Positions 14,832-63,418 are shown, numbered from the stretch's first letter. The stretch: 64,000 bases of DNA from Terriglobia bacterium (GCA_963724105.1 CAVRTD010000002.1:29650-93649); one strand, 5' to 3'. Made by a program: numbers and translations. The notes: a model not told the origin generated them from the sequence alone.

Positions 14832-14838
14832 AAGAATC

Positions 14839-15448: not shown

Positions 15449-15487
15449 ATTGCCTAACGCCTTCTAATTTCTAATAAGGAGTCCAAA

Positions 15488-16012: not shown

Positions 16013-16047
16013 GATCGGATTCTCTGCATCACGAAGGGAGATTTCGA

Positions 16048-16398
16048 ATGTCAGATCCGGCGGATTTCTTAAAACGTGTTTACGACCTTTTCAACGCTCG
16101 TGATATGGAGACAGTACTCGCAGCCATGCACGAGGATGTCATTTGGGCCAACGGCTTTGAAGGCGGCCATGTCCACGGACGTAGCGGAGTGCGCAGCTAC
16201 TGGACACATCAGTGGGCGACGATCAACCCGCACGTCGAACCGCTCGCGTTTGCCTGCGGCCCCGAAGGAGAGGTGGTTGTGGAAGTCCATCAAGTCGTGC
16301 GTGACCTCAAAGGGAATCTTCTGGCGGACCAGATGGTCGGTCATGTGTTTCGAATTGAAAATGGCTTGATCAAGCGCTTTGATATCCGCGACGTATAG
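16048..16398 (+). CDS. SnoaL/NTF2-like small protein
   Basis: 116 aa. The pattern VYDLFNARDMETVLAAMHEDVIW...G...H.R..V..YW is typical of the SnoaL-like/ketosteroid-isomerase-like fold. Family-level call only. Confidence 0.65.
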   Translation: MSDPADFLKRVYDLFNARDMETVLAAMHEDVIWANGFEGGHVHGRSGVRSYWTHQWATINPHVEPLAFACGPEGEVVVEVHQVVRDLKGNLLADQMVGHVFRIENGLIKRFDIRDV

Positions 16399-28555: not shown

Positions 28556-28650
28556 TTCATACGATGAATTCATGAGTCGGAGTGCAGAAGTGCTTCTGCA
28601 AGCTGAGAGCTGCTTCTGCACATTCGAACAAAAAATGGCGCGGGACAGAA

Positions 28651-30330: not shown

Positions 30331-30343
30331 TGGAGGTAGAAGC

Positions 30344-33910: not shown

Positions 33911-33912
33911 TT

Positions 33913-44900: not shown

Positions 44901-44958
44901 TCAAAAACATCAAACGACGGTCCATGAGATCCATTGAATCGGAATCAAGCGTGTTCAC
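41902..44958 (-). CDS. large hybrid sensor kinase: PDZ-like - multi-TM - GAF-like - HisKA - HATPase - REC
   Basis: The PDZ-like segment is [41 protein letters not shown]. About 10 hydrophobic helices follow. The H-box is [19 protein letters not shown]. The ATPase part is DTGIGM...[11 protein letters not shown] is [13 protein letters not shown]...[13 protein letters not shown]. Confidence 0.85.
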
Positions 44959-46700
44959 GGTCGTTCCTGCCTTGTATCCAACTCAGCAAGTTGCGACGGG
45001 CTTGTTGCAAAAGAACTTCCATCGGCGTTCAACCGCGGAGGAAATGCGCGCAGCTCTCTCTGGAAATAGCGGCTGTACCGCTCGCGGAATGGTGCAGGGC
45101 GGTCTGAAGCTTTTTCTTCCAGCAGCGACGGCAAAACATCGTCAACAAAATACATTTCGGCCTGGCGGTTCCCTTTTATTCCGACCAACCCGCGCGGCGT
45201 GCAGGAAAAAAAATCCTTCAACCGCTGAAAAGCACGCTCTGAGACATTAATCTTGTTGGCCGCGCCTGACATCACCATGCGCGATGCGAAATTAACAGCA
45301 TCACCCCACACATCAAAAGCAAATTTGCTTGTTCCAACCACGCCCGCGATTACAGAACCTGTGTGAATGCCAATTCTCATGGACCAGCCGGGATGGGGCC
45401 GGCTCTGCTGAGCGGCCATCACATACTGCAGCATTTCTATCGAAGCCAGCAGCGCGTCAACCGGGTGAGATGGCGTGCGCTCGGGGAGACCAGACAGAAA
45501 AATGTAGCTGTCGCCCACCGTTTTCAGCTTCTCCAGGCCGTAACGATCAACGATGGTGTCGAAAGCCGTGAAATATTCGTTTAACAGTGTAACCAGTTCA
45601 TCGGCCGTAAGTTTTTCCGTGGACGACGTGAAACTCACAAAGTCGGTGAAAATGATGGTGACATCCTCGAAATAGGTTGGCGAGACCGAACCGCGAAGCT
45701 GGAGTTCCTCGCACACCTTCCTGGGAAGAATACTCAAGAGCAGCTTCTCGGTGGTTTGTCTCTCGGCCTCAAGTTGAAGCAGGGCAGCTTTTAGCTGCTC
45801 AGTTTGTTCTCTTTCGAGATCACGTGACTGTTTACGGTCCAGCAGAGCGCGCACACGAGTGCGAAGAAGTGTGGCGTTAAAAGGCTTCAGAACGTAATCG
45901 TCCGCTCCTGTTTCGATGCAGGCGACAACTTTCTCGGTGTCGTCGACACCTGAAATCATGATAATGGGTATGTCTTTTGCAGGCTGGCCAGACTTTGCTG
46001 CCCGAAGAACTTCGAACCCGCTGGCTCCCGGCATCACCAGATCAAGAAGGACCAGATCGATGCGCCTCTTGTCGATCATTTGCAGAACTTCATGGCCATT
46101 CACCGCGAATATTACATCGTACTTGTCGCGGCGAAGTATGCGCGCGAGCAAATCGCGGTTTGCCTCGTCGTCATCAGCAACCAGTACAACCTGTTTTTCA
46201 CCTGCAATGGAAAGCCGCGCGTCGTCAGGAGTAAGTAAACCCGGCACAAGCCGCGGAGCTTCCGCCACTGGAGCGATGATCTGCTCAAACAACTTCAAAA
46301 ACTGGTGGACGGTGAATTCAAGTTCCAGAAGATCTTCGATCATGCCGGGATCCGCGTGGCCGCGCACCATAACTTGAATTTGCCTGATTCTTTCCTGAGT
46401 CTCTTTAGCGCGCAACAAAAGCCTCTGCCCTTGTGAGGGATCGCCGTCAACTCGCTGTCCGGAGCGGCCGGGTGCGGTCATCTGAAGGTCTTGCAGCAAT
46501 GACACTGCCTCCGCCTTTAGCTGGTCTAAAGGTCCGGCCAGCCCAGCCTCGCCTGCCGCTTGTCCAATTTCCATCTTCAGCAACTCACAACTGGTGACTA
46601 TATGGTTGACGCAGTCTCGAAGTTTAAGTTGGGCATCACCAGATAAGGCTGTCGATTCAGCCGGCAAGCCTGATTTCGAAGATGTGGAGGTGAAGTTCAT
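44955..46700 (-). CDS. response regulator with class III adenylate/guanylate cyclase output
   Basis: REC is [15 protein letters not shown]...[14 protein letters not shown]. The cyclase part is [16 protein letters not shown]...KTVGDSYIF...[16 protein letters not shown]...[13 protein letters not shown]. The stop overlaps the next gene start by 4 nt, and the ATG lies 2 nt after the lanC stop. Confidence 0.85.
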
Positions 46701-46702: not shown

Positions 46703-47992
46703 TTACTCCCAGGAAAGTACAGAAGGTAGTAATTCCGGTTTCGCCGCCCTAAGGAGTTGATAACCGATGCCCGCGAGGCCCTTGTGAAATGTAAGAGGGG
46801 TATTGTCATTGCTGCGACCGAATCCGTAGCGCCCCCTGGTGATGGCGCGGCGCGCAACGGAGTTTGCCAACAGGACGGCCTGTTGCTTATGGCGCTCGAT
46901 TCCAAGTTTGCGCGCAGCCTCAAGAAAAAATTCGACACGTCCCAAAGTCCCACAGCACGGAAAATCGATATGGCTCAGCGTGCCAGACTTAGCTGCTGCT
47001 CGAAGGCATCGGTCAATATCCGCGCTGACCTCCGCCTGATCGAGACAAGAGCTATTGAGCCTGCCAAGGCCAATTCCTGGAGCGCCATTGCACCAGCTAT
47101 TCCAGCATTGATAGCCGCCCTGCTCCCGGGGCAGCAGTAGATGCGGCCAATTCCCTTCATCCTCACAGTAAAGGCTGTTCTCATAAGCCAGGGCTTCCGC
47201 TGCAGCATCCCGAAAGCTTGACTCTCCCGTAATCTCAAAGAGCCGGCAGAGAGCTTGAATTATTCCCGCAGCGCCATGCGCGTATCCGGTTTGGCACTTG
47301 CCTGGTGAAGTTTCCCATGCCCTCAGACCAGACGAGGTAGTAATGCGGGCGCGGAGCAGATGTTTACCCCATAGGGCTGCCTGTTCGATCATCCACGGTT
47401 CGGGAGCAAGACTATGAAGTGATGCACAAACTAATGCGCAGCCAGCGGATCCTCCCATCAGATCGACTCCACGCGCATTAACGATTCTCTGGTGAGGAAA
47501 ACGGCGTGCAATTCGGATTGCGGCTGAAAGCAACTCCTCATCGCCCATAAACGTGGCGATTCGCGCAAGGGAGTAGATGATCGAAAATGATCCCGTTCCG
47601 GCGCCTACGCCATCCCGCGCAAGCCAATCATCAACCTGTGTCGACGAAAGAGTGCGCAGCGGCTGCACTACGGCGCAAACCAGTGACCGGTACTCAGTTT
47701 TTTCAGAGATGTGGTCTAAAGCGGCAAGAAACAAACAAATTCCGTATGTTCCACCATACAAGTCGTGGCCAGAGAACTCTCGTCCACCGGACCAAGGATC
47801 ATGTTGCAGACGCCCTGTCCACGGAGCTATTCCACCCTCCGCAAAACTGGGCGATTGGGACACGATCGCACCAATGGCTGCGGCTTCATCAAGCAGCAAG
47901 CAATGAGCCCGACTAGCTTCTTCCTGATGGACTTCTGACGCGAACTCATTACTGTCGCGTTTATGAGTAGGCAACTCGATGATAGTTTTCAT
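46703..47992 (-). CDS. lanC: LanC-type lanthionine cyclase with Cys-Cys-Gly zinc motif
   Basis: Start at MKTIIELP (47992); the track ORF is extended upstream. Motifs are GYAHGAAGI, NSWCNGAPGIGL and FPCCGTLGRVEF, the last at the position of the usual CHG. Repeated GxxG helices are also present (GGTYGICLFL, GLAGIGYQLL). Confidence 0.85.
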   Translation of the reverse strand: MKTIIELPTHKRDSNEFASEVHQEEASRAHCLLLDEAAAIGAIVSQSPSFAEGGIAPWTGRLQHDPWSGGREFSGHDLYGGTYGICLFLAALDHISEKTEYRSLVCAVVQPLRTLSSTQVDDWLARDGVGAGTGSFSIIYSLARIATFMGDEELLSAAIRIARRFPHQRIVNARGVDLMGGSAGCALVCASLHSLAPEPWMIEQAALWGKHLLRARITTSSGLRAWETSPGKCQTGYAHGAAGIIQALCRLFEITGESSFRDAAAEALAYENSLYCEDEGNWPHLLLPREQGGYQCWNSWCNGAPGIGLGRLNSSCLDQAEVSADIDRCLRAAAKSGTLSHIDFPCCGTLGRVEFFLEAARKLGIERHKQQAVLLANSVARRAITRGRYGFGRSNDNTPLTFHKGLAGIGYQLLRAAKPELLPSVLSWE

Positions 47993-48020
47993 AAGGACAG
48001 ATCCGCAAAAAAATCTGCGA

Positions 48021-49382
48021 TCACATCCGAGATTCAGTTTGGCCAGGTTTCCAGAAAGACACTTTCGGCCTCCACCTGGCGTCGGAGCCCGATGGTAGGC
48101 TCTTTGATTCGAAAATGTCACTTCCGCTTCGAAGGAGAATCGATGCAAGCCTTGTAGTCTCCTGAGAGATGGCTGGATCGATTGGCGCACCATCCGTCAA
48201 GTCAGACCAAAACGCACTTTTTTTGCGTAGATCTACATTCAACACAAAAAGGTATGCGGCCGAAGCCAAAACAAGGTGGTGATGGAACCCTTTCCATGAC
48301 CGTCCCTGGTAGCAGCCCAGATCCAGATCACGTTCAAGACAGCCCTGGTACTGCTCCTGATACGAACGATGCCGGCTCAACCGGAGGCACATGGTTTCAG
48401 TTGGCCGTTTGTGGAAACGCGCGAGGTAACAACGATAAGGTTGTGCCTGCCCGTCGGGCCAATCGACAACAAACCAGAGTCTTTGGAGGCTGCTACTTAT
48501 CCCATGTAGACCGGAATCCAGGAAGACCTCGCGAATTGCAAGCCGCGTTTGCCGTGAAGTACCTTCACGCGTAGCCCAGGAGCAGCGCGACCATTCTGCG
48601 GCCCCGATTTTTTGCATGATTTTTTCCAGCGTGTATGGATGCGGCTGCAGGCTCGAATTCCATTCAGGCGTGTTGGACTGAAAATCCCAGGCAATATTCG
48701 TTTTTGGATCCACTTCCAGAAAGAATTCCATTCCAGCGTGCAATAAGGCTGAACGAAAATCGGCGTCGTTGCCGTAAGCAGCATCGCCTACCAGCGGCTT
48801 GGGATGGAGCCCGTCACCGGTCACTTCCCGCAATAGTGCTAGCACAAGGGATGACCGTGAGGGAAAACATGCATCCTTGGGGACCCCGGACCGCGACAGT
48901 CTCGATGACTCGGCAGCCCAGTCTGGCGGGAGATACAGCCGTGCAGCAAGCGGCGCCGCGAACGATCCATCACTGGCCAGTATCTCCACGCTGATCTGGC
49001 AACGGGACTTCTTGCCATCCGCGCCACATCGCTGGTTTGATACGCCGACAGATTCATTCCCCTGCTTTGTCCATGCTCTCTCATTCACCACCCAGCGATC
49101 GACCGGTTCAATAGTGGGAATGATTGCTCTACGTATGCGCGTCCAAACCTGTTGATCGTCCCATGGGCTGTTTGCAATCGTCTGATGCAGGCTCTGGGAG
49201 TCTACTTGCAGCCGCTCGGCAAGAGGACGAATGAATTTTCTTCTTCCGGGCAGCAGCAGGCCTTCAATGTATCTGGCGGTGGCGACCCGCCGCTCCTGCC
49301 TGCCGATGCTTTCCAGCAGCGTGGAGAGATAGCGAGTCAGGTAGGGAATATTTTCTTTATATGTTGCCAGTTCCCACTTCAT
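48021..49382 (-). mobile_element. IS701-family-like DDE transposase gene, apparently degenerate, no terminal inverted repeats found
   Basis: Start MKWELATYKEN with RBS GGAGG. The sequence WVVNERAWTKQGNESVGVSNQRCGADGKKSRCQISV...ARLYLPPDWA...VGDAAYGNDADFR...GCYQGRSWKGFHHHLVLASAAYLF follows the IS701 DDE_5 layout. The first catalytic position reads N-E-R where I expect D-D-T (motif recalled from memory). Confidence 0.65.
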
Positions 49383-49452
49383 AAATTCACGACCTCCCCT
49401 TCCGACCCACATCATGGTTCCCGAATTTCCGCGGTCTGGGCGAACATAGCGT

Positions 49453-50535
49453 CTAAGCAGACGCCTTCCACAAGATCGGCGACCGCATTGCGAACTCTAA
49501 AACCTCATCCATCGACTGATCCTGAATGGGAACGGGAAGCGCCGAATGGCGCAGCCACAGGAGACGCCATGTTCCGGGATACCATTGGCGCAACCTCTCG
49601 ACCCCGCGCCACAACAGTCGCGAGAGGTACACCTCTTCAGGGTTGTTCAATCCAATCCGATTGGCAGTCATGTGAATGTGGCTTGACGTAATGGGCCAGT
49701 GGGCTTGCCGGGAAAGACCGCTGATCTCAGCAGCCAGGCCCCGGCTAATATTCACCAGGCTGGACGGCTCACAATTTTTGCTGGCACACACGGACTCAAG
49801 CTCTGCGATTACTAATTCTGTAATCTGCTTTTCCTGCCGCGAAAACACAAGATCAGCCTCCCGAATACAAGGCTCCAGCGAATCACCCCATGCCTCTGAG
49901 GCATACGCGGCGAGCCGGACAAAATCTTCTTCGTCACCCGCCAGTCCCCAGGCAAGTTGGAGGGCCAGACGCATCATCGCGGAGTTAATCCAGTCACGAC
50001 GGGAATTGCCGCGTTCATCCAGCATTTTCAGGATAGCCAGACTGGAGATGCAAAAAAGATCAATCGAGGCGCCGATATGGTCTGCGCCTCCATAGCGATT
50101 GATTTCAAACACAGGGGTAAACTGCCGCCATGAATTGTCCGCGTAGACACGACTAACGTCCGCTCGTGCTGCCGGATCAGTGGTTGCAATCGCCCGGTTC
50201 GTAGCCAGGATCTGGTCCTGAGCAACCGGCGCTTTAGAAGGATACTTGTCAAAAAAACCGGCAGCGCGCTTTTGTAGAACTTCCTCCGCGCGTCCACTGG
50301 TATTTTCATCTTTCAATCGCCAGCGCAAACGGAGATGAGGGCCTCCAAGCGAGTACCGGACAAAATAAAACCGGTCGATCACTCCCAGGCTAGCCAGTTC
50401 GAGCATGAGCGGCCACGCCAGTTCCCGCAACATTCTGTCGCGATCGGCATGATAGAACACGTGGTATGCGCGCCAGCGCAGCAATGAATCTGGGCACGTG
50501 CCACCATTAGATTGACCTATAAGTTGCGTTGCCAT
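49453..50535 (-). CDS. stand-alone LanB C-terminal (SpaB_C / thiopeptide-type) elimination-domain protein
   Basis: LLRWRAYHVFYHADRDRMLRELAWPLM...IDRFYFVRYSLGGPHLRLRWRL and the C-terminal SSHIHMTANRIGLNNPEEVYLSRLLW match the Lant_dehydr_C / TIGR03891-type pattern (W..Y...; FF.RY..GPHLRLR; H.h.NR). Confidence 0.8.
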   Translation of the reverse strand: MATQLIGQSNGGTCPDSLLRWRAYHVFYHADRDRMLRELAWPLMLELASLGVIDRFYFVRYSLGGPHLRLRWRLKDENTSGRAEEVLQKRAAGFFDKYPSKAPVAQDQILATNRAIATTDPAARADVSRVYADNSWRQFTPVFEINRYGGADHIGASIDLFCISSLAILKMLDERGNSRRDWINSAMMRLALQLAWGLAGDEEDFVRLAAYASEAWGDSLEPCIREADLVFSRQEKQITELVIAELESVCASKNCEPSSLVNISRGLAAEISGLSRQAHWPITSSHIHMTANRIGLNNPEEVYLSRLLWRGVERLRQWYPGTWRLLWLRHSALPVPIQDQSMDEVLEFAMRSPILWKASA

Positions 50536-51395
50536 GCGTAGAGAATAATTGGGATTTCTTGTAATACGATTTGCCCCAATTGCAGCAGAGTGAAGTGGTT
50601 GATCGAGCGCAGGAGACCGAACCCCTGAGCGAGAGAAGACTTTGATTGCGAGACGATCAGGAGAACCAGTCCGTCCACGTCCACCGAGAGGTCAGTTTCT
50701 TCATTCCATATTTCGGAAAAGAATTTCTGATTTGCCCGCGAGACGGCTTTTTGCAGCCATTCGCTTGACATCTCTGGCCGTTCCTTGATGCTTTGCTCCA
50801 GCCCGAACAGAAGACTTCCAGCATGGAAGCGCCAGTAGTCCGCGGGCGGAATTTTTTGCCTTTTCAATGATCGATCAACCGCTGCCAGCCAGCGAACCGC
50901 TGCTCGTGAGACGTTGCCGCCAGCTTGCTCCAAGGCCCAGAAACATACCTGGTCGATGCGCTCCCAGAGTTCATCTGCCGCAGCAACGCCGGCATTGAGC
51001 AGAAAGGGATAGCCATTGTGTTCATGCTCAAAAATCTGAAAGGAGTTGTTCAGGGCTGAACCTGGCTCTCGATCAGCCAGATTCATCGTCCTGCCCCTGC
51101 ACCCGCCGTGCCGTTCAGACACTTCCTGAGCGCTAAGTTGTGCGTGGCTTGGATAACGGGTAATAAATTTCTGAATATTGTCCTGGAGATAGGTCTTAAC
51201 GCAGTCTCCTCCGGCGGTTGTGGTGGTGAAGATGCCGAAGACGTGCGGGCTCCGCGCGTCATACGGGCAAAACCAGAGCCGCTGCAGCAATCCCTGCCGA
51301 CGGACATCGTGCGCCCACGCGTTGAGTCCGTGTTGCAGGAGGCGCTGCTGGTCCTCCATTCCCCAATAATAGATATTAAATCCGATATTCGTCAT
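50517..51395 (-). CDS. divergent SpaB_C-like paralogue (start uncertain)
   Basis: NIGFNIYYWGMEDQQRLLQHGLNAWAH...LQRLWFCPYDARSPHVFGIF and the C-terminal LLRSINHFTLLQLGQIVLQEIPIILYAW are collinear with the SpaB_C pattern. The canonical GPHLRLR and H..NR residues are replaced. Candidate starts are at 51395, 51419 or 51359. Confidence 0.5.
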   Translation of the reverse strand: MTNIGFNIYYWGMEDQQRLLQHGLNAWAHDVRRQGLLQRLWFCPYDARSPHVFGIFTTTTAGGDCVKTYLQDNIQKFITRYPSHAQLSAQEVSERHGGCRGRTMNLADREPGSALNNSFQIFEHEHNGYPFLLNAGVAAADELWERIDQVCFWALEQAGGNVSRAAVRWLAAVDRSLKRQKIPPADYWRFHAGSLLFGLEQSIKERPEMSSEWLQKAVSRANQKFFSEIWNEETDLSVDVDGLVLLIVSQSKSSLAQGFGLLRSINHFTLLQLGQIVLQEIPIILYAWQRNL

Positions 51396-52077
51396 AGATG
51401 CCGGGGCCGCTCGACTCATAATCGATCGCAATAGTCTCAAAACGAAAGAAGCTGCGGATAACACGATCGTAGAAAGGCATTCTTCGCTCTTCTTCCATGA
51501 CCATGCATAACTCTTCAAAGAAGGCAACGTTGGGCTGGCGAATCGAAAGAAAAAGACTACGGAGCGTCGAATAAAAAACGGCTGGACCGTGGGGCGTCTC
51601 GCAAAGAGGGGTGCGGTCCGTAAGCATCGCCTGCACGCGGCTGATGTGGCTATGCATTTCTTCCCATTTGCGCTGATTGCGCGCCACGCGAGCCTGGTTA
51701 ATACACAGGTCGGGACACTGCAGGGCGAATGGAATCAGGAATTCATATTCCTCTGCGGCCATGGCGACGGCCCTGTGTGCCCATTTCATCGACTCGCTTG
51801 CGCTCGCGAAATCTCCTGCTCGGTAGTGGTATAGGCCAAGAGTCTTGTAGTAAGACTGGTCAAGCACAACTCGAACCGAATTGGGTATGTCGACAGCTTC
51901 CAGAGCGCCACCGGCTTTCTGCAGAATGTTTCCGGCTTCCTTTATTTTGTGCGAACGAAGAAGCGGCATCGCGCTGTTGATCAGGCGCAAGATGTGGCAG
52001 TGACGTTTATATTCCCCAACCCATGCGAGCCCGGCATCACCGGTGCGCTCGATAAATTCAATCAGGATATCTGCCAT
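51376..52077 (-). CDS. unknown helical-repeat protein, paralogue 2 of a tandem pair
   Basis: 233 aa. It shares blocks with 52138-52809: YHYRAGDFASASESMKWAHRAV vs YFYSVGNFQQARESMNQAHDAV; QARVARNQRKWEEM vs QARIARNQRRWPEM; FYDRVIRSFFRFETIAIDYES vs LFDQFVRRMLRFQEIGIEYQS. No TM or signal peptide. Confidence 0.6.
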   Translation of the reverse strand: MADILIEFIERTGDAGLAWVGEYKRHCHILRLINSAMPLLRSHKIKEAGNILQKAGGALEAVDIPNSVRVVLDQSYYKTLGLYHYRAGDFASASESMKWAHRAVAMAAEEYEFLIPFALQCPDLCINQARVARNQRKWEEMHSHISRVQAMLTDRTPLCETPHGPAVFYSTLRSLFLSIRQPNVAFFEELCMVMEEERRMPFYDRVIRSFFRFETIAIDYESSGPGIYDEYRI

Positions 52078-52137
52078 CTCTTTAGCTCAACTGTTGCTCA
52101 AGAATTGACTGGTTTCTGCCTTGGTGGAATTTCACTA

Positions 52138-52809
52138 TCAAGATTGATATTCGATGCCAATTTCCTGGAATCGCAGCATGCGCCGGACAAATTGGTCGAA
52201 GAGGCGGCTTCGTTCTTCCTGGTCTACTATTTTGGCGGCTACACTGGATTCTTCAGTCGTCATGTCGCCGATCTGCGCAAAAAAACTACGAAACGCGGAA
52301 AAATATATTTTTTGACCATTGATTTTTTCGCACAAAGGAACATGGTCCAGCATCATTCCCTGTGCCTGCGCGACGAACGTATTCATTTCAGGCCAGCGGC
52401 GCTGGTTGCGCGCGATTCGCGCCTGATGAAGACAGAATTCCTGACAGTGCACCGCCAGCATGATCAACCAGTCCGCACTGCTGATGGCTCTTTTCACGGC
52501 GTCATGCGCCTGGTTCATTGATTCGCGGGCCTGCTGAAAGTTGCCCACGGAATAGAAGTAATAGCCGGCAACGCCGTGGTGCCAACGGTAGAGCACTGCG
52601 CTCACAGAATCTTGTTCGCCTCTCATCGCGGACAGATGATGCGCAAATTCCCGCAGCACTCTTCCCCCTTCTTCAATCTCGCCCTTGCGCATCAGAGCCA
52701 GCGCGCGATCGCTGAGTGCAACGGCAGGCAAGTGCCGGCGATAGGCGGCAGCCCAATCCTGGCCAGCGCTGCCAGTACGCTCGGCAAAATGAAGCCAATC
52801 ACATGCCAC
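52138..52809 (-). CDS. unknown helical-repeat protein, paralogue 1 of a tandem pair
   Basis: 223 aa; see the paralogue at 51376-52077. It is the first gene after the precursor-gene terminator. Confidence 0.6.
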   Translation of the reverse strand: MACDWLHFAERTGSAGQDWAAAYRRHLPAVALSDRALALMRKGEIEEGGRVLREFAHHLSAMRGEQDSVSAVLYRWHHGVAGYYFYSVGNFQQARESMNQAHDAVKRAISSADWLIMLAVHCQEFCLHQARIARNQRRWPEMNTFVAQAQGMMLDHVPLCEKINGQKIYFSAFRSFFAQIGDMTTEESSVAAKIVDQEERSRLFDQFVRRMLRFQEIGIEYQS

Positions 52810-52886
52810 GATTCAATTCCTCAATTCCCGCTGGATTCACGGTAGTCACTTTTTGACATCAACAGGTCCATTGGATAGATAAAAGC

Positions 52887-52920
52887 CTCTGGGACAGACA
52901 TCAAACCGCCTGTCCCAGAG
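52887..52920 (-). terminator. intrinsic terminator/attenuator hairpin after precursor gene A1
   Basis: CTCTGGGACAG (52887-52897) pairs perfectly with CTGTCCCAGAG (52910-52920), giving an 11-bp stem and a 12-nt loop. On the minus-strand RNA the hairpin begins 35 nt after the TGA and is followed by GCUUUUAUCUAU. Confidence 0.55.
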
Positions 52921-52954
52921 AAAACAAACAACTTGCAGCCTGGCGAACGAGATA

Positions 52955-53110
52955 TCAGCCAGAGCAGACGTTAGCGGAGCAGGATGCGATCGGGCAAGGT
53001 TCAAGAACGCCGCCGGAAACATCTTCCAGCGCCTGATCGGACAGTGGTTCAATCTCAACATCTTGTTTTTTTTCTGGAATTGCATTTGGATTGGTAGCTT
53101 TGTCAGACAT
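52955..53110 (-). CDS. lanA: lanthipeptide-type precursor A1 (51 aa), not in the ORF track
   Basis: Hand translation: MSDKATNPNAIPEKKQDVEIEPLSDQALEDVSGG|VLEPCPIASCSANVCSG*. RBS AAAGGAAAAAAC precedes the ATG. The leader is double-Gly type and the core has 3 Cys and 3 Ser. The 79-aa track ORF 52846-53085 is the wrong frame. Confidence 0.8.
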   Translation of the reverse strand: MSDKATNPNAIPEKKQDVEIEPLSDQALEDVSGGVLEPCPIASCSANVCSG

Positions 53111-53171
53111 GTTTTTTCCTTTCTATTGGATTTACTGTTGGTGGAGTCAATTTTTGCTTTGCGACAGGGCT

Positions 53172-53238
53172 CTCTTCTGAAGCCGGTTTAACTGGTACCA
53201 ACCGGTTCTTTGGGCCAGTCGAGTTGATCTCAGAAGAG
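53172..53238 (-). other. nested RNA stem-loop structure in the spacer between precursor genes A2 and A1
   Basis: The outer 9-bp stem is CTCTTCTGA (53172-80) / TCAGAAGAG (53230-38). The inner 6-bp stem is CCGGTT (53183-88) / AACCGG (53200-05). No U-tract follows on the minus strand. Confidence 0.4.
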
Positions 53239-53295
53239 CATGGCCCGTGTGAACCTCGGTGCAACCCAGCTATAGCCTGGATTGAAGCGATCCGG

Positions 53296-53451
53296 CTACG
53301 CTAGGTCGCCAGAGCAAACATTTGCGGAACATGAAGCGATGGGGCAGCCACCGGAAGCATCTTCGAGCGACTGGTCGGAAAGTGGTTCGATCTGAACGTC
53401 ATCCTGTTTCTTTTCGGGGACTACATTTGGTTTATTGGGAGTGTTAGCCAT
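53296..53451 (-). CDS. lanA: lanthipeptide-type precursor A2 (51 aa), not in the ORF track
   Basis: Hand translation: MANTPNKPNVVPEKKQDDVQIEPLSDQSLEDASGG|CPIASCSANVCSGDLA*. RBS AAAGGAACAACCATC precedes the ATG. It shares the CPIASCSANVCSG core block with A1. Confidence 0.8.
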   Translation of the reverse strand: MANTPNKPNVVPEKKQDDVQIEPLSDQSLEDASGGCPIASCSANVCSGDLA

Positions 53452-53642
53452 GATGGTTGTTCCTTTCGGTTTGTGTTTTTTGAATTCGGCCTTGCGGCCG
53501 TTGCTGCCGTTAGACGCCCACCACAGGTAAACGCCTAATCTCTTAAAAATTCTGGAAACTCAATGGAGAGGCCTGCCTTTAGCGTCACAAAAGTGAACGA
53601 CATGATTGGGCTCTGGTTCTTATAGCGTTCAACCCGGGCACT

Positions 53643-56399
53643 CTACCTTGTTGCGGCTTGCTCATCGCGTTGACGTAACCGAGATGACTCCCGGCTGGAA
53701 AACACATCGAGCGAAAACATGGCGCGCTCATCCACAGGCGATTGCAATGCAACCGCATCAACCAGCAATTCAACCGCCCACCTTTGCCCTTTGGAATCTC
53801 TGGGCATCATCTCCGGTTCGGGCAATGTTTCCACCAGCACAAGGGACCCTTCGGCTGCGAGCGCGATGGAGTGCAGGATCGAGATGAACAATGGTGAGCT
53901 CAGGTCCAGATATTGCGGCTTGTGGTATTTTCCCCGCGGGAAAGAATTAAGCTTCTCAGCCACAAACAAACGGGTTGGAATCTCGAACTTCCGGAGGAAA
54001 CGATGCAGCCGCTCAAACGCCTCTGGGCTCCCAGGGTCTTCCAGAATGCGCCGCAGATCTAGAGCTGGAACACTCCAACTCTTGCGCATAAGCACTACAT
54101 TTCCGATGCGCGTCCGCTCGCGGACGGTGATGCCATCGACCTCTCGCTGTAAGCGTTCGGGATAGAGGGGAATCGTATCTGTTGGTCCGAACGCACACAA
54201 AAACTTCACCAGAGTTGGCAGGTAAGTGGAGCCAGCAAGGCCGATATAAGACGCCAGGTAGCGCTGTCCACTGCGATCCTGCAGCCTGGGCCATCCATCT
54301 TCACCCACTGTAACAAACAGCTCTGCCAAAGAAAGGCGCCGTTCGGGCGCTATATCCATATGGGTTGCCGGCAGCACCAGGACTTTTGGGGTTTGTGGCG
54401 CATGCACGTTGAGCGTGTCACCACTCACGCAATGAATGTCCAATATCTGCAAGCATTCGTCGTTATCCAAAATTACCGCTCGCCGCGCTAACCCGTCAGC
54501 ATACTGATGGCGGAGCGGAGCCGGCATCAACGGAGTGTAACGGCTGGACATCCGGCCCGTTCCTTCTTTCAACCGGTTGAGCACCCACAGAGAACCATCC
54601 GCTGTAGCCGGTTGGAGAAAAAGGCAGCCGCCTCCCTGGTACTTCTTGAATGCGTCAGGTATCTCGTCCAGGAGAAGGTTAAAACGGCTTATCGAGATTG
54701 TGCGGCCCTGCGCATCATCCATCCAACAATTGCGCAAAGATTCGCGGGCAGCAGTGCGTACCGATAGCAAATGATCCAGCACATCCAGACCCAGCGGATT
54801 CCAGGTTGAATGCTGCTCCTCAGTGGACCTGATCGCGGACTCATGAGAAACGTATTCCTGGAACAAATCCCGCACAGCGTCAAACGCACTGAGAAGATCC
54901 AGCCTGCAGTGCTTCCCTTTACTTTTTTCGAGAACAGAGCCAACGCTGAATAGAAGATCAAGGCGGCGGTCAAACAAGCGTGAGTATCGTAAAAGTGGCT
55001 CTGCGCTCCGTTGGGCCTGTTCCATGGCCGTCCTTCCAACACTCACGACTGGAAGACCCTTATCGGATTTGGGAGAACACCAAACATCCTGATAAATATC
55101 GTGCCCGGGAATATGCGACGCCGTTTTCGTATTGGTCGGGAGTTGAGCAATACGAGTGGCGCTGAACACCATTTCGTCCATCGTTTGCTGCATGCGCAAG
55201 AGCGTTTGTCCCGGTTCATTTGCGGAAAAAAGATTTCCTTCCAGAAGCACTAACCGCTCCAGAAGTTCAATGAAGTTTTGCAGCGCCGGGTCATGCGGCA
55301 ACAGCTGGAGCTTTTGCAGGACCATTTTCTCAAGGTGCCCTTCATCGGCGCTCCAGGGCAACGCCAGATACAGAAACCCCAAATCAATCAGACTGTCTAT
55401 TTCTTCTTTGATCGACTCGGAATGCGCATCCATTTCATCTTCGATCAGCTTAAGTAGCTCAACATAATTGAGCGGACCGCTAGCCAGAAGTGATTGCAGG
55501 CGCTGGACGAGAGGCCCCTGAAGCCTGGCGCGAACAAGTGACTCGCGGTAGTAACGGATCTCCTTGGTATCTTCGTCCACTCGATACTGCCCGGGACGGC
55601 GGTGAAGAGTCCGTCCGTCCTCGAGTTTCGAAACTGAATCGTTAATCGCTACCGAAAGCGTGCGCCGCCACGGTTCATAAAGACATAACGCATCGGTACA
55701 CCGGTCAAGAATGTGTCTACGTACGCGCACTAGAGAATGCTGATCCCATTCACCAGGCAACAATCTCAAAGGCTCCGAGCCGCCTTCCACGCGACACAAC
55801 CCGACCGGAGTGAAAGTCGAGAATGGAGACAGTTTGAGAGAAGCCCGGCTGGCGTAACGCAATACTGTCGCGGCCAGGCGTTTTTCCCGGCGACCATAAT
55901 CTTCCGGCGCTTTCACTTTCAAACGGCCGGACTCGCTGGCCACTGTATTGCTTGCCACTGCCAGCCCGCAGCGGAACATGGGATTATCAATCAGCCCAGC
56001 GACACAGTGATACTGCCTTGTTGTTTCATCTCCGTGGGCTTTTACAAACTCTTGCTTTTGATGAGCGAGGTTCTCTTCCAGCTCAATCACTTGTTCCGCC
56101 AGCGCCGGAGCGGCTTGTTTTATGAGCATCCAAACCAGCTTCGTGCGATAGCGGGTTAGTGGACGTCCATTAAAGCAATCACGCTTGACTTCCAGGAGAG
56201 CGTGTCGTTTCTCGGTCGGAGCATTATGAATAGCCGCGTGAAGCTGTTCAACAAGTTCATTACGAGCGTTGGATAAATTAGCTTCGAGCTTTGCTATCGC
56301 ATTCAGAATATCGCCCAACCGGCTGGAAAAATCCTCCATTGTGCTGGCGGGGAGTCCGCTCAATCGGGCTATAAGTAGGGCTGAATTGCTCGTCGTCAC
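53643..56399 (-). CDS. lanB: LanB-type dehydratase, N-terminal (glutamylation) part only, no fused elimination domain
   Basis: 918 aa. MTTSNSALLIARLSGLPAST..., KRDCFNGRPL and LKLSPFSTFTPVGLCRV follow the Lant_dehydr_N pattern. The protein ends without a SpaB_C-like region. Confidence 0.85.
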   Translation of the reverse strand: MTTSNSALLIARLSGLPASTMEDFSSRLGDILNAIAKLEANLSNARNELVEQLHAAIHNAPTEKRHALLEVKRDCFNGRPLTRYRTKLVWMLIKQAAPALAEQVIELEENLAHQKQEFVKAHGDETTRQYHCVAGLIDNPMFRCGLAVASNTVASESGRLKVKAPEDYGRREKRLAATVLRYASRASLKLSPFSTFTPVGLCRVEGGSEPLRLLPGEWDQHSLVRVRRHILDRCTDALCLYEPWRRTLSVAINDSVSKLEDGRTLHRRPGQYRVDEDTKEIRYYRESLVRARLQGPLVQRLQSLLASGPLNYVELLKLIEDEMDAHSESIKEEIDSLIDLGFLYLALPWSADEGHLEKMVLQKLQLLPHDPALQNFIELLERLVLLEGNLFSANEPGQTLLRMQQTMDEMVFSATRIAQLPTNTKTASHIPGHDIYQDVWCSPKSDKGLPVVSVGRTAMEQAQRSAEPLLRYSRLFDRRLDLLFSVGSVLEKSKGKHCRLDLLSAFDAVRDLFQEYVSHESAIRSTEEQHSTWNPLGLDVLDHLLSVRTAARESLRNCWMDDAQGRTISISRFNLLLDEIPDAFKKYQGGGCLFLQPATADGSLWVLNRLKEGTGRMSSRYTPLMPAPLRHQYADGLARRAVILDNDECLQILDIHCVSGDTLNVHAPQTPKVLVLPATHMDIAPERRLSLAELFVTVGEDGWPRLQDRSGQRYLASYIGLAGSTYLPTLVKFLCAFGPTDTIPLYPERLQREVDGITVRERTRIGNVVLMRKSWSVPALDLRRILEDPGSPEAFERLHRFLRKFEIPTRLFVAEKLNSFPRGKYHKPQYLDLSSPLFISILHSIALAAEGSLVLVETLPEPEMMPRDSKGQRWAVELLVDAVALQSPVDERAMFSLDVFSSRESSRLRQRDEQAATR

Positions 56400-56615
56400 A
56401 GAACTGCTCCAGAAACTGCGTTATTGAGCTTTACCTTCAGGGCTGTGTCGAGAACTTCCACATGATGCCGGCAGCTCACGAAATCTCGCAAAGTGGAAGC
56501 GGACGTGCGCGGCCGGCACAAATGCAGTCGATTCAAACAGGCAAAATTGGATGGAGAAATCGTTTCAGGAATTGGTTAAATCTCGCGCCAGGCAATGGCG
56601 GTGATCAAGCGCAGC

Positions 56616-56765
56616 TCACCCTAAGTCTGGAGGCCCACACAAGGGTGAACCAGTTTCAGTACCGCCTGAAACTTCCTCAAGAGCGGCGTCGGAAAGGGGT
56701 TCGATTTCAGCGTCTTTCCGGCTCTGAATTGACTTGCCAGGCTGTTTTTTTTCCTCGTTTGGCAT
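56616..56765 (-). CDS. lanA: third precursor A3 (49 aa) with the same leader box, different core
   Basis: MPNEEKKQPGKSIQSRKDAEIEPLSDAALEEVSGG|TETGSPLCGPPDLG*. Start at the internal ATG 56765 of track ORF 56616-56810, with RBS GAAGGGA upstream. Confidence 0.7.
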   Translation of the reverse strand: MPNEEKKQPGKSIQSRKDAEIEPLSDAALEEVSGGTETGSPLCGPPDLG

Positions 56766-56831
56766 TTTTTTATCCCTTCGTAATAGATTTATGGGGCCTT
56801 GTGGTCGCAAATGAAACGCTCGTTGATGGAC

Positions 56832-57854
56832 TTACACCCGCGCAAGCTCCTGCGCAGGCACAAGACTATGATCTTCTACCGCTTTAATCAGAAGATGGTG
56901 CACATAGGCCTCATGCAGAGGTGTTACCCCAAATTGATTCGCCATTCCGTGCAACATCTTGAACAGAGGCGGAAAGTTCACGTTCGTAGTGAACGGATCA
57001 ATCTGATGTTCGCCGGAGCCGGCAAAAGATTGCGTATAAGCTGACAATGCCGCAAAGGTCCGCAACCACGGCTCTACTTCCTGGGCGCCGCTGTTGCGCG
57101 CCCACTCTTCATCACTGAGCTGCGCCAGCTTTGTTCTGGCAGTGCTGGAACCGGCTTGGGCATCAAAATGTGCACGAATCTCCAACTCTTTGCTGGATTC
57201 GGAAATGAAAAACCGCAAAAGCCAATCGCGATGAAAGGCAAGATATTCTGTCGCGCTGGTTCGATCACCAAGGCCAGAAGCACCCAGAGCCGAGATCAGG
57301 CTTTTTGCCAACAGAGATTGCTTGCTGCCATCCGAAAGCTCGCCCTGCTCATCTACGGCGGTGAGGAACACGCCAGTTGTTGCCGCAAGGCAACGACAGG
57401 CAAGGGCGACAAAATTTTCGTCTTCGAGCCAGGGTGACGCAGGAAGCGACACGTAGCTGCGTCCATAGGTTGTGGCGAGAAAGTTACGATCGGCGAAATC
57501 AGAATCTACTTTGTCTTCAGCGTCAATGGGTGGGGCCTTGGGATTACTTACACGAGGATCAGCCGCCAGGTAAGTGCGCGCTTTCTCGATCCACTTTTCT
57601 ACGTGGCTGTGCAGCAAAGGCCTCAGTGAATCCACCACAGCCCGCTCACCGTGAAGCCGAATCTTGAGGTGCTCCCCACCACGCGCGTAACGCATAATCC
57701 AAAGCCAACAATCCCCATCTGGCCGGACGCCCTGCATGTCACGCCAGAACGGCACAATCCCTTGCTGCAACAGGTTGTCCACCAGGCCGCTGGCATAAAT
57801 ATTTGCGGTTAAGATTGGATCTGCCGAATTGAGTGAATTAAGCATGTCCTTCAC
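56832..57854 (-). CDS. third SpaB_C-like (LanB C-terminal-type) paralogue
   Basis: ILTANIYASGLVDNLLQQGIVPFW...CWLWIMRYARGGEHLKIRLHG and the C-terminal LFKMLHGMANQFGVTPLHEAYVHHLL are collinear with the SpaB_C pattern. Confidence 0.65.
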   Translation of the reverse strand: MKDMLNSLNSADPILTANIYASGLVDNLLQQGIVPFWRDMQGVRPDGDCWLWIMRYARGGEHLKIRLHGERAVVDSLRPLLHSHVEKWIEKARTYLAADPRVSNPKAPPIDAEDKVDSDFADRNFLATTYGRSYVSLPASPWLEDENFVALACRCLAATTGVFLTAVDEQGELSDGSKQSLLAKSLISALGASGLGDRTSATEYLAFHRDWLLRFFISESSKELEIRAHFDAQAGSSTARTKLAQLSDEEWARNSGAQEVEPWLRTFAALSAYTQSFAGSGEHQIDPFTTNVNFPPLFKMLHGMANQFGVTPLHEAYVHHLLIKAVEDHSLVPAQELARV

Positions 57855-57932
57855 TTCCTATGGATGGTGGAACTGCTCTACTCTGAACGCCCCGCGGATC
57901 AAACCAGCGACTTGTTACGAGCAAAGCGGAAA

Positions 57933-58472
57933 TCAGGCCACGGAAACGTTTTGAAAATGTTGCTCAGGCGCGGGCAAGGGAACGTACCCACCGAGATCGA
58001 CAACGACGGAACTGCGAACGACTTCAATCGATAGAACCAGCCGATGCTGATTACGGTGACTCTCAACAACGCCTTCAATCCCATCAAAAGGGCCACCAGT
58101 AATCCGCACTCTGGAACCAATCTCTGCATACTCGCACGGTTGCATCTGGTATCCAGACTTGACAGCTGATTGAATTGCGCTGATTTCGTGGTCAGGGATG
58201 ATAGCTGGAGATTTAGCAGTACCGAGAATACGTATGACGCCTGGGGTCAACAGGATGGGACCGCTACCCATAGCCTTGATGCGACAAAATACATATCCGG
58301 CAAATAATGGAAGCTGTATTTCCTTCCATCGATCAGACCAGCGCCTGCGTACAACATAAGAAGGAGCAAATGTCTCGTAATTCTTTTCCGACAGGAGTCG
58401 CGCAGCAGTGAATTCATGCTGGTACCGTACGTAGATCGCACACCATGCGCTGTCATACTGGCTGAGGTCCAT
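57933..58472 (-). CDS. specialised NusG paralogue (RfaH/LoaP/UpxY-like antiterminator), first gene of the operon
   Basis: Start MDLSQYDSAW with a strong RBS GAAGGAG. The NGN-like N-terminus is WCAIYVRYQHEFTAARLLSEKNYETFAP. The KOW motif is IGSRVRITGGPFDGIEGVVES. Confidence 0.8.
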   Translation of the reverse strand: MDLSQYDSAWCAIYVRYQHEFTAARLLSEKNYETFAPSYVVRRRWSDRWKEIQLPLFAGYVFCRIKAMGSGPILLTPGVIRILGTAKSPAIIPDHEISAIQSAVKSGYQMQPCEYAEIGSRVRITGGPFDGIEGVVESHRNQHRLVLSIEVVRSSVVVDLGGYVPLPAPEQHFQNVSVA

Positions 58473-59068: not shown

Positions 59069-60331
59069 CTATTGGATGGGGGTTGACGGCGTGAATTTTG
59101 GAACCATAATCACGATGTCATATCCAAAAATAAGCCGCTCCAGCTCTTCATCAACTGGGCCAAGCGCTTTAAATCTCCGGCGAAGGCCGCGAAGATCGTA
59201 GAGAGTCCAGCCTTCCGGCAATCGATGGTCCACCAGCGGCTTAATGAAAGAAACCGCAGAACTTGTATCCTGTACCAGATCAAAATTCTCCAGTTGCGGT
59301 GGCTGGCCGGGCGCACCAAAACTGATCTCTGCTCCCTTCACTCCAATGATGTTGATATGAAGAGAGGTGGAATGATGGCCTTCTGCCAATTCAGCCACAA
59401 AATTGCCCAGATCGTCGTTATGTAGAGGATTAATCCCCTTATAAAGGTGGGCGGAGCCAAACTTGAGCAAGACTTTGGCGGGTTTTCCCTCAGCCCGCGT
59501 CTGGTCATCATAATAACGGGCGAACAACGCCTTCATCATTAGCGCCCGCTGAAGGTTGGAATCATAAGCTTCACCCTGCAGATATTTGTGGTAGATATCG
59601 CGGCTTTCGATGAAGGCATTCAGAATGGCTTGCGAAGCCGGATTCCCTTCCCGAGCCACCGAGTTCTTAAGTTCCAGAATCTCGCTGTCCGGCACAGACA
59701 GCATAAAAATATCGTTCACTTTCCCCGAAGCCACGGTCCGCGCATAGGCTTGATCATTTTCGCGGAACATCTGGCGTATTTTGGCAGCCGCCGCCTTGCC
59801 GGGATGAGAATTCAAGAGGCTCTGTAGCAAAAACCTGGACTCTCCGTAAAACTCCTGATCAAGCCCCCATATATGGAATTTTTCATTTTCCGCAGTATGG
59901 CTGCAATGGGCCAACAGATCTGTTTCCTCCTGAAGACGATAGAATGGGAGGGCGTCTGGAAATTCTTTCTGAAACTCAGCAACCTGGTGGCGTGAATCCG
60001 TGGAGCGGGCCCACTTCTCTAATTGGCCGGCCATCATTGGGCCGGTTTCAATTGCCATGGAATGAAACCCTTGCGGAACGGCAAGGTCACATATTGCAGA
60101 AGAGAACTCGGGGGTTTCCGCATTGCCGTGTTGTTCACCGATGAGCACAAACTGGGCGGAGGCAATGGCCTTGCGCAGAACCTCAGCTCCTGCGCCAGAT
60201 AAATGCCCATCCTTCAGGTTGAGATCATAGCGGTTCTCAAGAAGTTGTTTTCCGAGTTGTTCCTGCGCCAACATACATCCAAGGCCGGCAATTCCTAGAA
60301 ATACCACAGCCGCCAGTTTGGTGATCACCAA
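59069..60331 (-). CDS. secreted Tiki/ChaN/erythromycin-esterase-superfamily-like protein
   Basis: 420 aa with a signal peptide (AAVVFLGIAGLGCMLAQ). FVLIGEQHGNAETPEFSSAICDLAVPQGFHSMAIETG resembles the GE.H(G)..E...Gf...E N-terminal signature of that superfamily (recalled from memory). The gene follows lanKC by 80 nt. Confidence 0.45.
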   Translation of the reverse strand: MVITKLAAVVFLGIAGLGCMLAQEQLGKQLLENRYDLNLKDGHLSGAGAEVLRKAIASAQFVLIGEQHGNAETPEFSSAICDLAVPQGFHSMAIETGPMMAGQLEKWARSTDSRHQVAEFQKEFPDALPFYRLQEETDLLAHCSHTAENEKFHIWGLDQEFYGESRFLLQSLLNSHPGKAAAAKIRQMFRENDQAYARTVASGKVNDIFMLSVPDSEILELKNSVAREGNPASQAILNAFIESRDIYHKYLQGEAYDSNLQRALMMKALFARYYDDQTRAEGKPAKVLLKFGSAHLYKGINPLHNDDLGNFVAELAEGHHSTSLHINIIGVKGAEISFGAPGQPPQLENFDLVQDTSSAVSFIKPLVDHRLPEGWTLYDLRGLRRRFKALGPVDEELERLIFGYDIVIMVPKFTPSTPIQ

Positions 60332-63111: not shown

Positions 63112-63226
63112 ACATAATCCCTTCGTGCTCAATACTTGTAGCGAATCCTAAATACAATTTTGCGGCCGGCGATCTGGCGCCGAATATTCAACCTTGCTCC
63201 TGTTTTTCATTTCCAATTCCTGCAAA

Positions 63227-63263
63227 CCGTTCCGAACGATTGCCAGCAAGAGGTTCAGAACGG
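63227..63263 (-). terminator. imperfect hairpin after the class III precursor gene (attenuator candidate)
   Basis: CCGTTC-c-GAAC ... GTTC-a-GAACGG gives 10 paired bases with one mismatch pair and a 15-nt loop. On the minus-strand RNA it starts 15 nt after the TAA and is followed by UUUGCAGG. Confidence 0.4.
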
Positions 63264-63277
63264 TCGCTAGAATCGAT

Positions 63278-63418
63278 TTACTCATGATGAAGTGGACTGG
63301 CCTCTTCTGCTTGTACCGTAGGACAAATGCCGCTCGCTGTACTCATCAACATCTCTTCTCCAGCTATAACGTCCGGGGCCCATGTGGTCAACTTTTGCAG
63401 CGCAAGGATGTTACCCAT
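63278..63418 (-). CDS. class III lanthipeptide precursor (46 aa), not in the ORF track
   Basis: Hand translation: MGNILALQKLTTWAPDVIAGEEMLMSTASGICPTVQAEEASPLHHE*. A strong RBS AGGAGAAAAATCT precedes the ATG. ILALQKL matches the class III leader ILxLQ box. STASGIC is a Ser-x-x-Ser-x-x-Cys unit. Confidence 0.75.
   Translation of the reverse strand: MGNILALQKLTTWAPDVIAGEEMLMSTASGICPTVQAEEASPLHHE

Follow-up and report, generated by a model that had tools for sequence, protein, structure and literature searches.

The DNA analysed here is a 64,000-nucleotide (nt) stretch from a Terriglobia bacterium (GCA_963724105.1 CAVRTD010000002.1:29650-93649), referred to below as the window and numbered from its first letter. 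Between positions 58472 and 46703, its minus strand carries a set of genes for a split LanB, a LanC and three short precursor peptides. Judged by gene identities and conservation, this set is probably a functional representative of a cross-phylum family, so far uncharacterised, of split-LanB, class-I-type, lanthipeptide-like pathways for peptides made by ribosomes and modified after translation (RiPPs). Family identities were obtained from Pfam and NCBIfam profile searches of the window proteins, and the gene order reported in a preliminary description of the locus was recovered with all named genes present:

57933-58472, minus: UpxY-family NusG paralogue, 179 amino acids (aa), first gene of the operon (NF033644 109.6 bits, cutoff 100; PF02357 57.7 bits)
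56832-57854, minus: SpaB_C paralogue 1 (SpaB_C-1), 340 aa (PF14028 44.5 bits, cutoff 24.4)
56616-56765, minus, counted from its ATG: precursor A3, with a GG leader
53643-56399, minus: LanB-N, 918 aa (PF04738 81.9 bits, without PF14028)
53296-53451, minus: precursor A2, with a GG leader
52955-53110, minus: precursor A1, with a GG leader
52886-52921, minus: terminator-like hairpin 3' of the last precursor gene, 15-bp stem and U-rich tail
52138-52809, minus: T223, all-helical protein resembling tetratricopeptide repeats (TPR), with HCxEFCxH and PLC motifs
51376-52077, minus: T233, paralogue of T223, overlapping the start of SpaB_C-2 by 20 nt
50517-51395, minus: SpaB_C paralogue 2 (SpaB_C-2), 292 aa (profile-profile comparison and predicted structure)
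49453-50535, minus: SpaB_C paralogue 3 (SpaB_C-3), 360 aa, canonical glutamate lyase (PF14028 113.6 bits, TIGR03891 81.3 bits)
48021-49415, minus: IS701-family DDE transposase gene (NF033540 248.6 bits, cutoff 150)
46703-47992, minus: stand-alone LanC with a CCG zinc motif (PF05147 172.6 bits)

The 918-aa LanB had been described as elimination-less, and it indeed matches PF04738 only and has no C-terminal domain. The three SpaB_C homologues proposed at the same time are also present, two of them recognized by PF14028 and SpaB_C-2 by profile-profile comparison and its predicted structure. One length has to be corrected: SpaB_C-2 starts at 51395 and hence comprises 292 aa rather than 336.

Related loci were collected from genomes and metagenomes through 47 relatives of T223; all relatives found were proteins of metagenome-assembled genomes (MAGs) or metagenomes. 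About 20 loci share the order SpaB_C-1, LanB-N, precursor(s), one to three copies of a T protein (the family of T223 and T233), SpaB_C-2 and SpaB_C-3, often accompanied by LanC, which is of the CCG type in most full-length loci. The MAGs include Acidobacteriaceae, Thermoanaerobaculia and Longimicrobiaceae (Gemmatimonadota); the gene set spans two phyla, Acidobacteriota and Gemmatimonadota, and is no local oddity. Across loci, each SpaB_C type is closest to its own counterpart (30-45% identity). The closest relatives, loci L018 and L019, show 60-69% protein identity and have exactly the order of the window, including a gene for a 420-aa protein, the NusG paralogue, the IS701-like gene and both regulator genes downstream of the cluster. 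Comparison of the window with L018 gave a nonsynonymous divergence of 0.14-0.31 with saturated synonymous sites, and a dN/dS of approximately 0.07-0.16 for every gene. Because every part of the set is retained in two phyla and evolves under purifying selection, the extra paralogues are best regarded as functional, and by these substitution rates no paralogue is decaying. No entry in Pfam, NCBIfam or the PDB and no paper retrieved covers the gene set as a whole, the family of T proteins or the subfamilies of SpaB_C-1 and SpaB_C-2, and a literature search returned no acidobacterial or Gemmatimonadota split-LanB system and no description of a TPR partner. The suggestion that the system is undescribed agrees with these searches, in which no characterised counterpart was found.

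The enzymes of the biosynthetic core can be assigned by homology. LanB-N has the Lant_dehydr_N domain of the glutamylation enzyme in split-LanB class I systems; its nearest solved structures are TbtB (6EC7, E 3.3e-24, an almost end-to-end alignment reaching residue 881) and GodF (9JHQ, E 1.1e-9), and on the strength of these matches it is a predicted glutamylation-only split LanB of the TbtB/GodF kind. For the SpaB_C proteins, single-sequence searches of the PDB were too weak and profiles were therefore used; among PDB entries there is no stand-alone TbtC-type lyase with which to compare them. The canonical lyase set consists of NisB R784/R786 and R826 together with a catalytic His (PMC9486935, PMC9011353). 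In the profile alignment to NisB, R784/R786 fall in the HxRLR motif and R826 in ERYGG. In SpaB_C-3, R69/R71 (GPHLRLR) correspond to R784/R786, R147 (NRYGG) corresponds to R826, and H288, in the invariant HMTANR motif, is assigned by position as the catalytic His. All four residues, R69, R71, R147 and H288, are invariant, indicating that SpaB_C-3 has the elimination-protein equivalents of NisB R784/R786, R826 and H961. The cyclase had been described as a LanC of the CCG type, which the PF05147 match and the invariance of CCG in six family members bear out. AHG and WCxGAPG are likewise invariant in these six, so that the zinc ligands and catalytic His are present, as a CCG variant in which Cys replaces His as the third zinc ligand. 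The top NCBIfam match of this LanC is the LanM C-terminal cyclase (TIGR03897 positions 532-932, 275 bits), and the three-Cys zinc site is presumably of the ProcM type. In other phyla, LanC lies upstream of SpaB_C-1 and the transposase gene is absent.

SpaB_C-1 aligns with SpaB_C-3 over 278 columns (hhalign 97.5%), and a profile search of the PDB with SpaB_C-1 returned no match. It has an invariant GEH-x-K64-x-R66 and H302 (FKxxHGxANQ), carries Ser at the R826 position (VSLGG), and lacks the ERYGG and NR arginines. In most loci, as in L012, L014, L016 and L020, its gene is directly upstream of LanB-N or overlaps it. Assignment of SpaB_C-1 as a syn-lyase was considered and rejected by comparison with published alignment blocks: SpaB_C-1 reads MRYxRxGEHLKxR, with the Tyr kept, the first Arg changed to Lys and H302 retained. 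In the syn-glutamyl lyase (syn-GL) signature of SptBb/CoiSA(ED), Lys replaces the NisB Tyr (MHK/LRK), PPGLRVRF keeps R-x-R, EPExxLFGGP follows, Leu or Ala occupies the R826 position, and the catalytic His is absent.

SpaB_C-2 is more divergent. It aligns with SpaB_C-3 (hhalign 98.6%) across the N-terminal 127 columns only. Hydrophobic residues, including the F after FDARGPH, replace the Arg clamp, no Arg stands at the R826 position, and H267 (INHFTLLQLG) can be matched position by position to the catalytic-His motif HMTANRLG. The earlier claim that two divergent paralogues had lost the canonical residues thus applies to SpaB_C-2, which lacks the whole Arg clamp, but only partly to SpaB_C-1, which keeps K-x-R; both keep the His. 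In Pfam, Lant_dehydr_C was found in SpaB_C-1 and scored below the cutoff in SpaB_C-2 (16.9 bits). The AlphaFold model of SpaB_C-2 (predicted local distance difference test, pLDDT, 84.6) covers a whole SpaB_C fold and matches both TbtD/PbtD and LanB elimination domains: in Foldseek, TbtD and PbtD were on top (E 1e-7 to 8e-6; template-modelling (TM) score 0.59-0.65, TbtD 0.63-0.65), and the elimination domains of MadB, MibB and NisB gave TM scores of 0.46-0.54. An exhaustive profile search of 1.84 billion representatives yielded 184 proteins at E <=1e-3 and 157 at E <=1e-10; the SpaB_C-2 family is small and sharply bounded. Among 122 members, H51 is invariant, and Y9, Q16, D46, R48, H96, D108, R263 and H267 are at least 90% conserved. 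A separate observation concerns L020 (10001-14047, on the contig of L006), which encodes two SpaB_C-2 paralogues followed downstream by GNAT-like and Asp/Arg-hydroxylase-like proteins, suggesting that some members of the family tailor their product further.

The 223- and 233-aa proteins, T223 and T233, are paralogues, as previously stated (36% identity, E 5e-53), and belong to no Pfam or NCBIfam family. The AlphaFold2 model of T223 (pLDDT 93.7) is an all-alpha repeat of TPR type. Foldseek retrieved only generic TPR peptide-binding domains (best E 0.012) and no significant PDB match, and no relative of T223 was found in Pfam, NCBIfam or a PDB profile search. Within the family, C122 and C160 are invariant and H121, E124, H128, R131, R134 and N135 are at least 90% conserved, giving the motifs HCxEFCxHQARIARN and PLC. 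Most often a T gene is the immediate upstream neighbour of SpaB_C-2, and its stop codon frequently overlaps the start codon that follows. SpaB_C-2 always has a T protein before it; other T genes precede SpaB_C-3 or follow SpaB_C-1 in some loci. In a neighbour-joining tree combined with gene contexts, the T233 clade is always immediately 5' of SpaB_C-2. One derived clade, sister to T223, belongs to class III clusters (LanKC, ABC, MacB, T) without any SpaB_C. The co-occurrence of T with SpaB_C that the preliminary description proposed to test is the dominant context, but does not extend to the LanKC-associated clade. We also observed that five loci (L002, L004, L023, L024 and L028) contain an acidobacterial class III module of LanKC, ABC, MacB-type FtsX permease and T protein, and that the precursors of these modules end in ...SCTSSWS(S/Q)CC.

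The three GG-leader precursors of the preliminary description are real, each combining a leader with a core that contains Ser/Thr and Cys. The A1 leader ends in ...EIEPLSDQALEDVSGG and is followed by the core VLEPCPIASCSANVCSG; A2 has ...QIEPLSDQSLEDASGG and CPIASCSANVCSGDLA, and A3 has ...EIEPLSDAALEEVSGG and TETGSPLCGPPDLG, the core of the L018 orthologue of A3 being ADQAPTGSPLCTPPDGA. Core lengths in the cluster are 14-17 residues. Across both phyla the leaders follow the consensus (E/D)IEPLS(D/E)xxLExVxGG. Wherever SpaB_C-2 occurs and a precursor could be detected, in 14 loci, the core has the motif C-S-x3-C-S-(N/G/P/R); it mostly takes the form C-C-S-C-x-x-C-S-N, and the minimal cores VCSVSGCSN and LCSLWSCSN follow GG directly. 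The precursor C-termini are free to vary in length and sequence, and the A3-type core (TGSPLCxPPD) is conserved among close relatives only. L037, the sole variant without SpaB_C-2, has the same leader with T-C repeats (TCTTYTCTTYTCPTYTC) at 8599-8874 and 17050-17319. Precursors with the same leader and Cys-less, Pro-rich cores, DTAWPPPPTPPTEGG and DDGWGTGTPPPPTDGSGGG, were observed in L013 (4314-4505) and L014 (10732-11043), beside pairs of T and SpaB_C genes.

The hairpin reported behind the precursor genes was confirmed, with 15 bp paired without mismatch and a U-rich tail behind them (dG -34 kcal/mol, z -2.9). In L018, a counterpart hairpin built on the identical CUGGGACA/UGUCCCAG stem stands behind the last precursor gene. 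The NusG paralogue, which scored above the NF033644 cutoff for UpxY/LoaP-type proteins, is likewise the first gene in the related clusters L006 and L018. Together, the hairpin and the NusG paralogue suggest attenuation combined with antitermination.

The gene between SpaB_C-3 and LanC had been called a transposase relic, a label that does not fit a full-length open reading frame (ORF) at a conserved position under purifying selection. Positions 1-360 of the 363 in the NF033540 profile are covered, and the flanking intergenic spacers measure 38 nt upstream and 29 nt downstream. The gene occupies the same position in L018 (11985-13373) and L019 (78-81% aa identity) and is the most conserved of the set (pN 0.139, pS saturated versus L018). 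A search for terminal inverted repeats around the gene found none, and recent mobility is not indicated. An intact, conserved gene under purifying selection cannot count as a relic. This one resembles an insertion that took place long ago and has since been maintained by selection, and it is possibly domesticated.

Beyond the cluster itself, four further groups of genes were noted in the window:

28582-37991, plus: export block comprising OEP, HlyD, NHLP-type C39 ABC, partner ABC and DUF7005 proteins (Pfam, TIGR03796, TIGR03797)
41902-46700, minus: gene pair immediately downstream of LanC, for a response-regulator/guanylate-cyclase protein and a hybrid histidine kinase
59069-60331, minus: 420-aa conserved protein, upstream of the NusG paralogue
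60412-63418, minus: separate class III LanKC system abutting the cluster (LanKC, NF038151 753 bits)

Both ABC proteins belong to the NHLP-type bacteriocin exporters: the C39 peptidase ABC (31592-33910) reached 1105.4 bits with TIGR03796 (cutoff 853.3) and its partner (33907-36819) 930.1 bits with TIGR03797 (cutoff 709.4). Because exporter homologues lie directly beside biosynthetic genes elsewhere, adjoining SpaB_C-3 or SpaB_C-1 in L025, L037 and L038 and located inside the L006 cluster, the window exporter very probably belongs to the same pathway. A DUF7005 protein is encoded 3' of the ABC pair (36819-37991, plus strand; 414 bits), and L038 has a homologue next to its exporter and SpaB_C-3; this placement suggests that the protein takes part in the export system. 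The regulator pair, a response-regulator/guanylate-cyclase protein and a PDZ/GAF hybrid histidine kinase, is found at the same place in L018 (71-74% identity). Because this position downstream of LanC is conserved, the pair is likely dedicated to the cluster, and the two proteins are its probable regulators. The 420-aa protein has a hydrophobic N-terminus, no match in Pfam or NCBIfam, and, in L018, an identically placed orthologue (67% identity, dN/dS 0.12); it may contribute to the system, e.g. in immunity or processing. The class III system has its own precursor (63278-63418, MGNILALQKL...STASGIC...) with an ILxLQ-type leader and an S-x-x-S-x-x-C motif, and is not adjacent to the split-LanB cluster in L018 or L019. 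An Rfam scan of 28-64 kb and a megablast search of the cluster against plasmids gave no match.

From these data a working scheme can be proposed, in which the individual steps are derived from knowledge of the protein families, and the gene identities, residue patterns, synteny, selection and motifs are those described above. Transcription would start upstream of the UpxY-type NusG paralogue, whose product would let RNA polymerase pass the strong hairpin. Because the hairpin lies behind the precursor genes and would be passed with the help of the NusG paralogue, precursors would outnumber the enzymes. TbtB-like LanB-N would glutamylate Ser/Thr residues of the GG-leader precursors using Glu-tRNA(Glu), and SpaB_C-3, with its full NisB-type catalytic set, would eliminate glutamate to yield dehydroalanine (Dha) or dehydrobutyrine. 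SpaB_C-1 could be the ancestral, translationally coupled partner of LanB-N, acting as a second lyase with a changed pocket and thus site- or stereo-selective. A complex of SpaB_C-2 and T may act on the C-S-x3-C-S core, either by positioning the substrate or in a second-step reaction other than canonical elimination. The CCG LanC would then add Cys thiols onto the dehydro residues, the likeliest ring joining Dha(i) to Cys(i+4) inside C-S-x3-C-S, and the NHLP-type C39 ABC pair with HlyD and OEP would cleave after GG and export the peptide.

Several observations weigh against this scheme or parts of it. The roles of SpaB_C-1, SpaB_C-2 and T, which are drawn from residue patterns and gene order only, are much less certain than the rest. 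SpaB_C-1 may not be a lyase, because it is without the ERYGG arginine needed in canonical lyases, and the occurrence of one T clade in SpaB_C-less LanKC clusters argues against T being purely a partner of SpaB_C-2. The window cores have no Ser upstream of the first Cys of the motif, and because of this a simple N-to-C lanthionine topology leaves residues unused. Moreover, the exporter genes are about 9 kb away from the cluster and on the opposite strand. The multiplicity of SpaB_C proteins, on the other hand, is less exotic than the preliminary description held, because anti and syn elimination are known from coi/SapT: additional elimination-domain proteins were already reported from class I clusters in 2020 and, in 2022, accounted for as syn-lyases, providing a precedent for one class I cluster with two lyases of different selectivity (PMC9486935, PMC9011353).

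Among other explanations, an ordinary class I pathway would need only LanB-N, SpaB_C-3 and LanC, with SpaB_C-1, SpaB_C-2 and T serving as scaffolds, chaperones or immunity or regulatory proteins. We regard this as possible but doubtful. SpaB_C-3 alone has the complete NisB-type residue set, and T, a repeat protein of generic TPR-like type, matched no enzyme-like structure and is also encoded beside MacB/ABC transporters in LanKC clusters; yet SpaB_C-1 and SpaB_C-2 retain many invariant polar residues, including the aligned catalytic His, both have been kept across two phyla (dN/dS approximately 0.12-0.15), and T conserves H121, C122, E124, H128 and C160. The same H/C/E motif would suit T as a tailoring enzyme on finished thioether rings, e.g. 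in an oxidation like that attributed to CoiH/LanH, an idea that is unlikely on present analogy although compatible with a split-LanB lanthipeptide-like pathway. CoiH has also been described as TPR-like and introduces a +16 Da sulfoxide outside the known oxygenase families, and T occurs in class-I-type and class III clusters, which have thioether products in common, so that tailoring of this kind would explain the LanKC-associated clade. Set against this, CoiH has at least 332 residues, with D59, N97, R100 and L332 essential, at a T length of approximately 225 aa, and the tight coupling of T with SpaB_C-2 better fits a complex.

The preliminary description had suggested that the chemistry may go beyond lanthionine formation and had pointed to the [4+2] pyridine-forming step of thiopeptide and pyritide pathways; in such a reading, SpaB_C-2 would be a [4+2] aza-cyclase that forms a pyridine from two dehydroalanines. 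Apart from TbtD and PbtD being the top structural matches of the SpaB_C-2 model, PbtD is the best PDB profile match of SpaB_C-2 (E 0.013) and the RGPH motif is common to SpaB_C-2 and TbtD/PbtD. Thiomuracin and GE2270 cores contain C-C-S-C-S, which is present in most cores here. The structural similarity may nevertheless just reflect the stand-alone SpaB_C fold, and SpaB_C-2 stays far below the TbtD/PbtD equivalog NF045556, scoring 19.5 bits at a cutoff of 325 (SpaB_C-1, 19.6 bits; SpaB_C-3, 53.3 bits). Furthermore, the window and minimal cores open with a residue other than Ser directly behind the GG site served by the C39 protease, although some relatives start with Ser; a dedicated C39 exporter takes off the leader, and LanC is conserved. 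Pfam searches of flanking ORFs, covering the large unassigned ones of L006, L012, L013, L014 and L016, revealed neither a YcaO protein nor a dehydrogenase, and gave no match for the ORFs flanking the T/SpaB_C-1 pair of L013, which are probably spurious products of high-GC sequence. Pyridine formation is accordingly very unlikely. Hardly credible at all is a role of LanB-N as a peptide aminoacyl-tRNA ligase (PEARL), which would extend the precursor C-terminus by an amino acid taken from aminoacyl-tRNA: the missing elimination domain is a feature shared with PEARLs, but among solved structures LanB-N comes closest to the glutamyl transferases TbtB and GodF, its gene is translationally coupled to that of a SpaB_C protein in most loci, a canonical lyase and LanC are present, and the varying, unconserved precursor C-termini do not fit C-terminus-directed chemistry. 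An extremely small probability also attaches to a decaying or insertion sequence-disrupted cluster with no product. The transposase gene does sit between SpaB_C-3 and LanC, and in the copy from ENA (L001), a metagenome contig of 632 kb that matches the window at 99.7% identity, LanC is split into two frames (14614-16109); this frameshift is probably an assembly or sequencing error. In the window, LanC and every other ORF are intact, the insertion sits in an intergenic spacer, and clusters of 60-69% identity have the same arrangement with purifying selection on each gene.

Within the split-LanB lanthipeptide-like family, it is conceivable, and we put it forward tentatively, that SpaB_C-2 and T, possibly together with SpaB_C-1, carry out a reaction on C-S-x3-C-S that is neither glutamate elimination nor pyridine formation. 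If true, such a reaction could, for example, introduce a novel cross-link or transform Cys or thioether groups via the retained His base, and would yield a new RiPP scaffold built by repurposed LanB elimination-fold enzymes. This fold is known to have been repurposed twice, in [4+2] pyridine synthases and in syn-lyases; here, two further conserved variants go together with a core motif of Cys and Ser that is very short and strictly conserved, and with a stand-alone ProcM-like cyclase. If the extra enzymes are merely site- or stereo-selective lyases, the concept of paired anti and syn lyases would reach beyond Actinobacteria. The family also gives access to RiPP chemistry in Acidobacteriota and Gemmatimonadota, phyla nearly devoid of characterised natural products.

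Among known systems, the TbtB-TbtC-TbtD proteins of thiomuracin/GE2270 biosynthesis (also MroB/C/D of pyritides and GodF/G of goadsporin) resemble the cluster in combining a glutamylation-only LanB-N with a SpaB_C lyase encoded apart from it and one more SpaB_C-fold protein that stands alone, the SpaB_C-2 model being nearest to TbtD/PbtD. The cluster differs from them in the absence of YcaO/azole genes, the conserved LanC, the GG leader with C39 exporter, three rather than two SpaB_C types, the TPR-like partner and the failure of SpaB_C-2 to reach the equivalog. The coi/SapT clusters are likewise class I; they, too, encode more than one PF14028 protein, with active sites that differ, and a helical-repeat accessory: CoiH/LanH, a TPR-like accessory of class I clusters with an extra lyase, makes methyllanthionine sulfoxide. 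SpaB_C-1, however, has RY...GEHLKxR and the His, in contrast to MHK...PGLRVRF without His in the syn-GL; the cluster has a third paralogue, its T proteins, which can be likened to CoiH by description, measure approximately 225 aa as against more than 332 aa, and its hosts are Acidobacteriota and Gemmatimonadota rather than Actinobacteria. Pinensin-type clusters of Bacteroidota share the split LanB, LanC, exporter and Gram-negative producer; to our knowledge, they have one SpaB_C protein and no T family. With ProcM-type class II LanM the cluster shares several diverse precursors per cluster, and its LanC shares the three-Cys CCG zinc motif and the match to the LanM C-terminus, but this LanC stands alone, unfused to a dehydratase domain, and would work with a tRNA-dependent split LanB. 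Finally, export resembles that of NHLP/Nif11 systems (TIGR03796/TIGR03797 with HlyD), given that both cutoffs were passed and the precursors have GG sites, whereas the leaders, of about 35 aa with an IEPLSD motif, are neither NHLP nor Nif11 domains.

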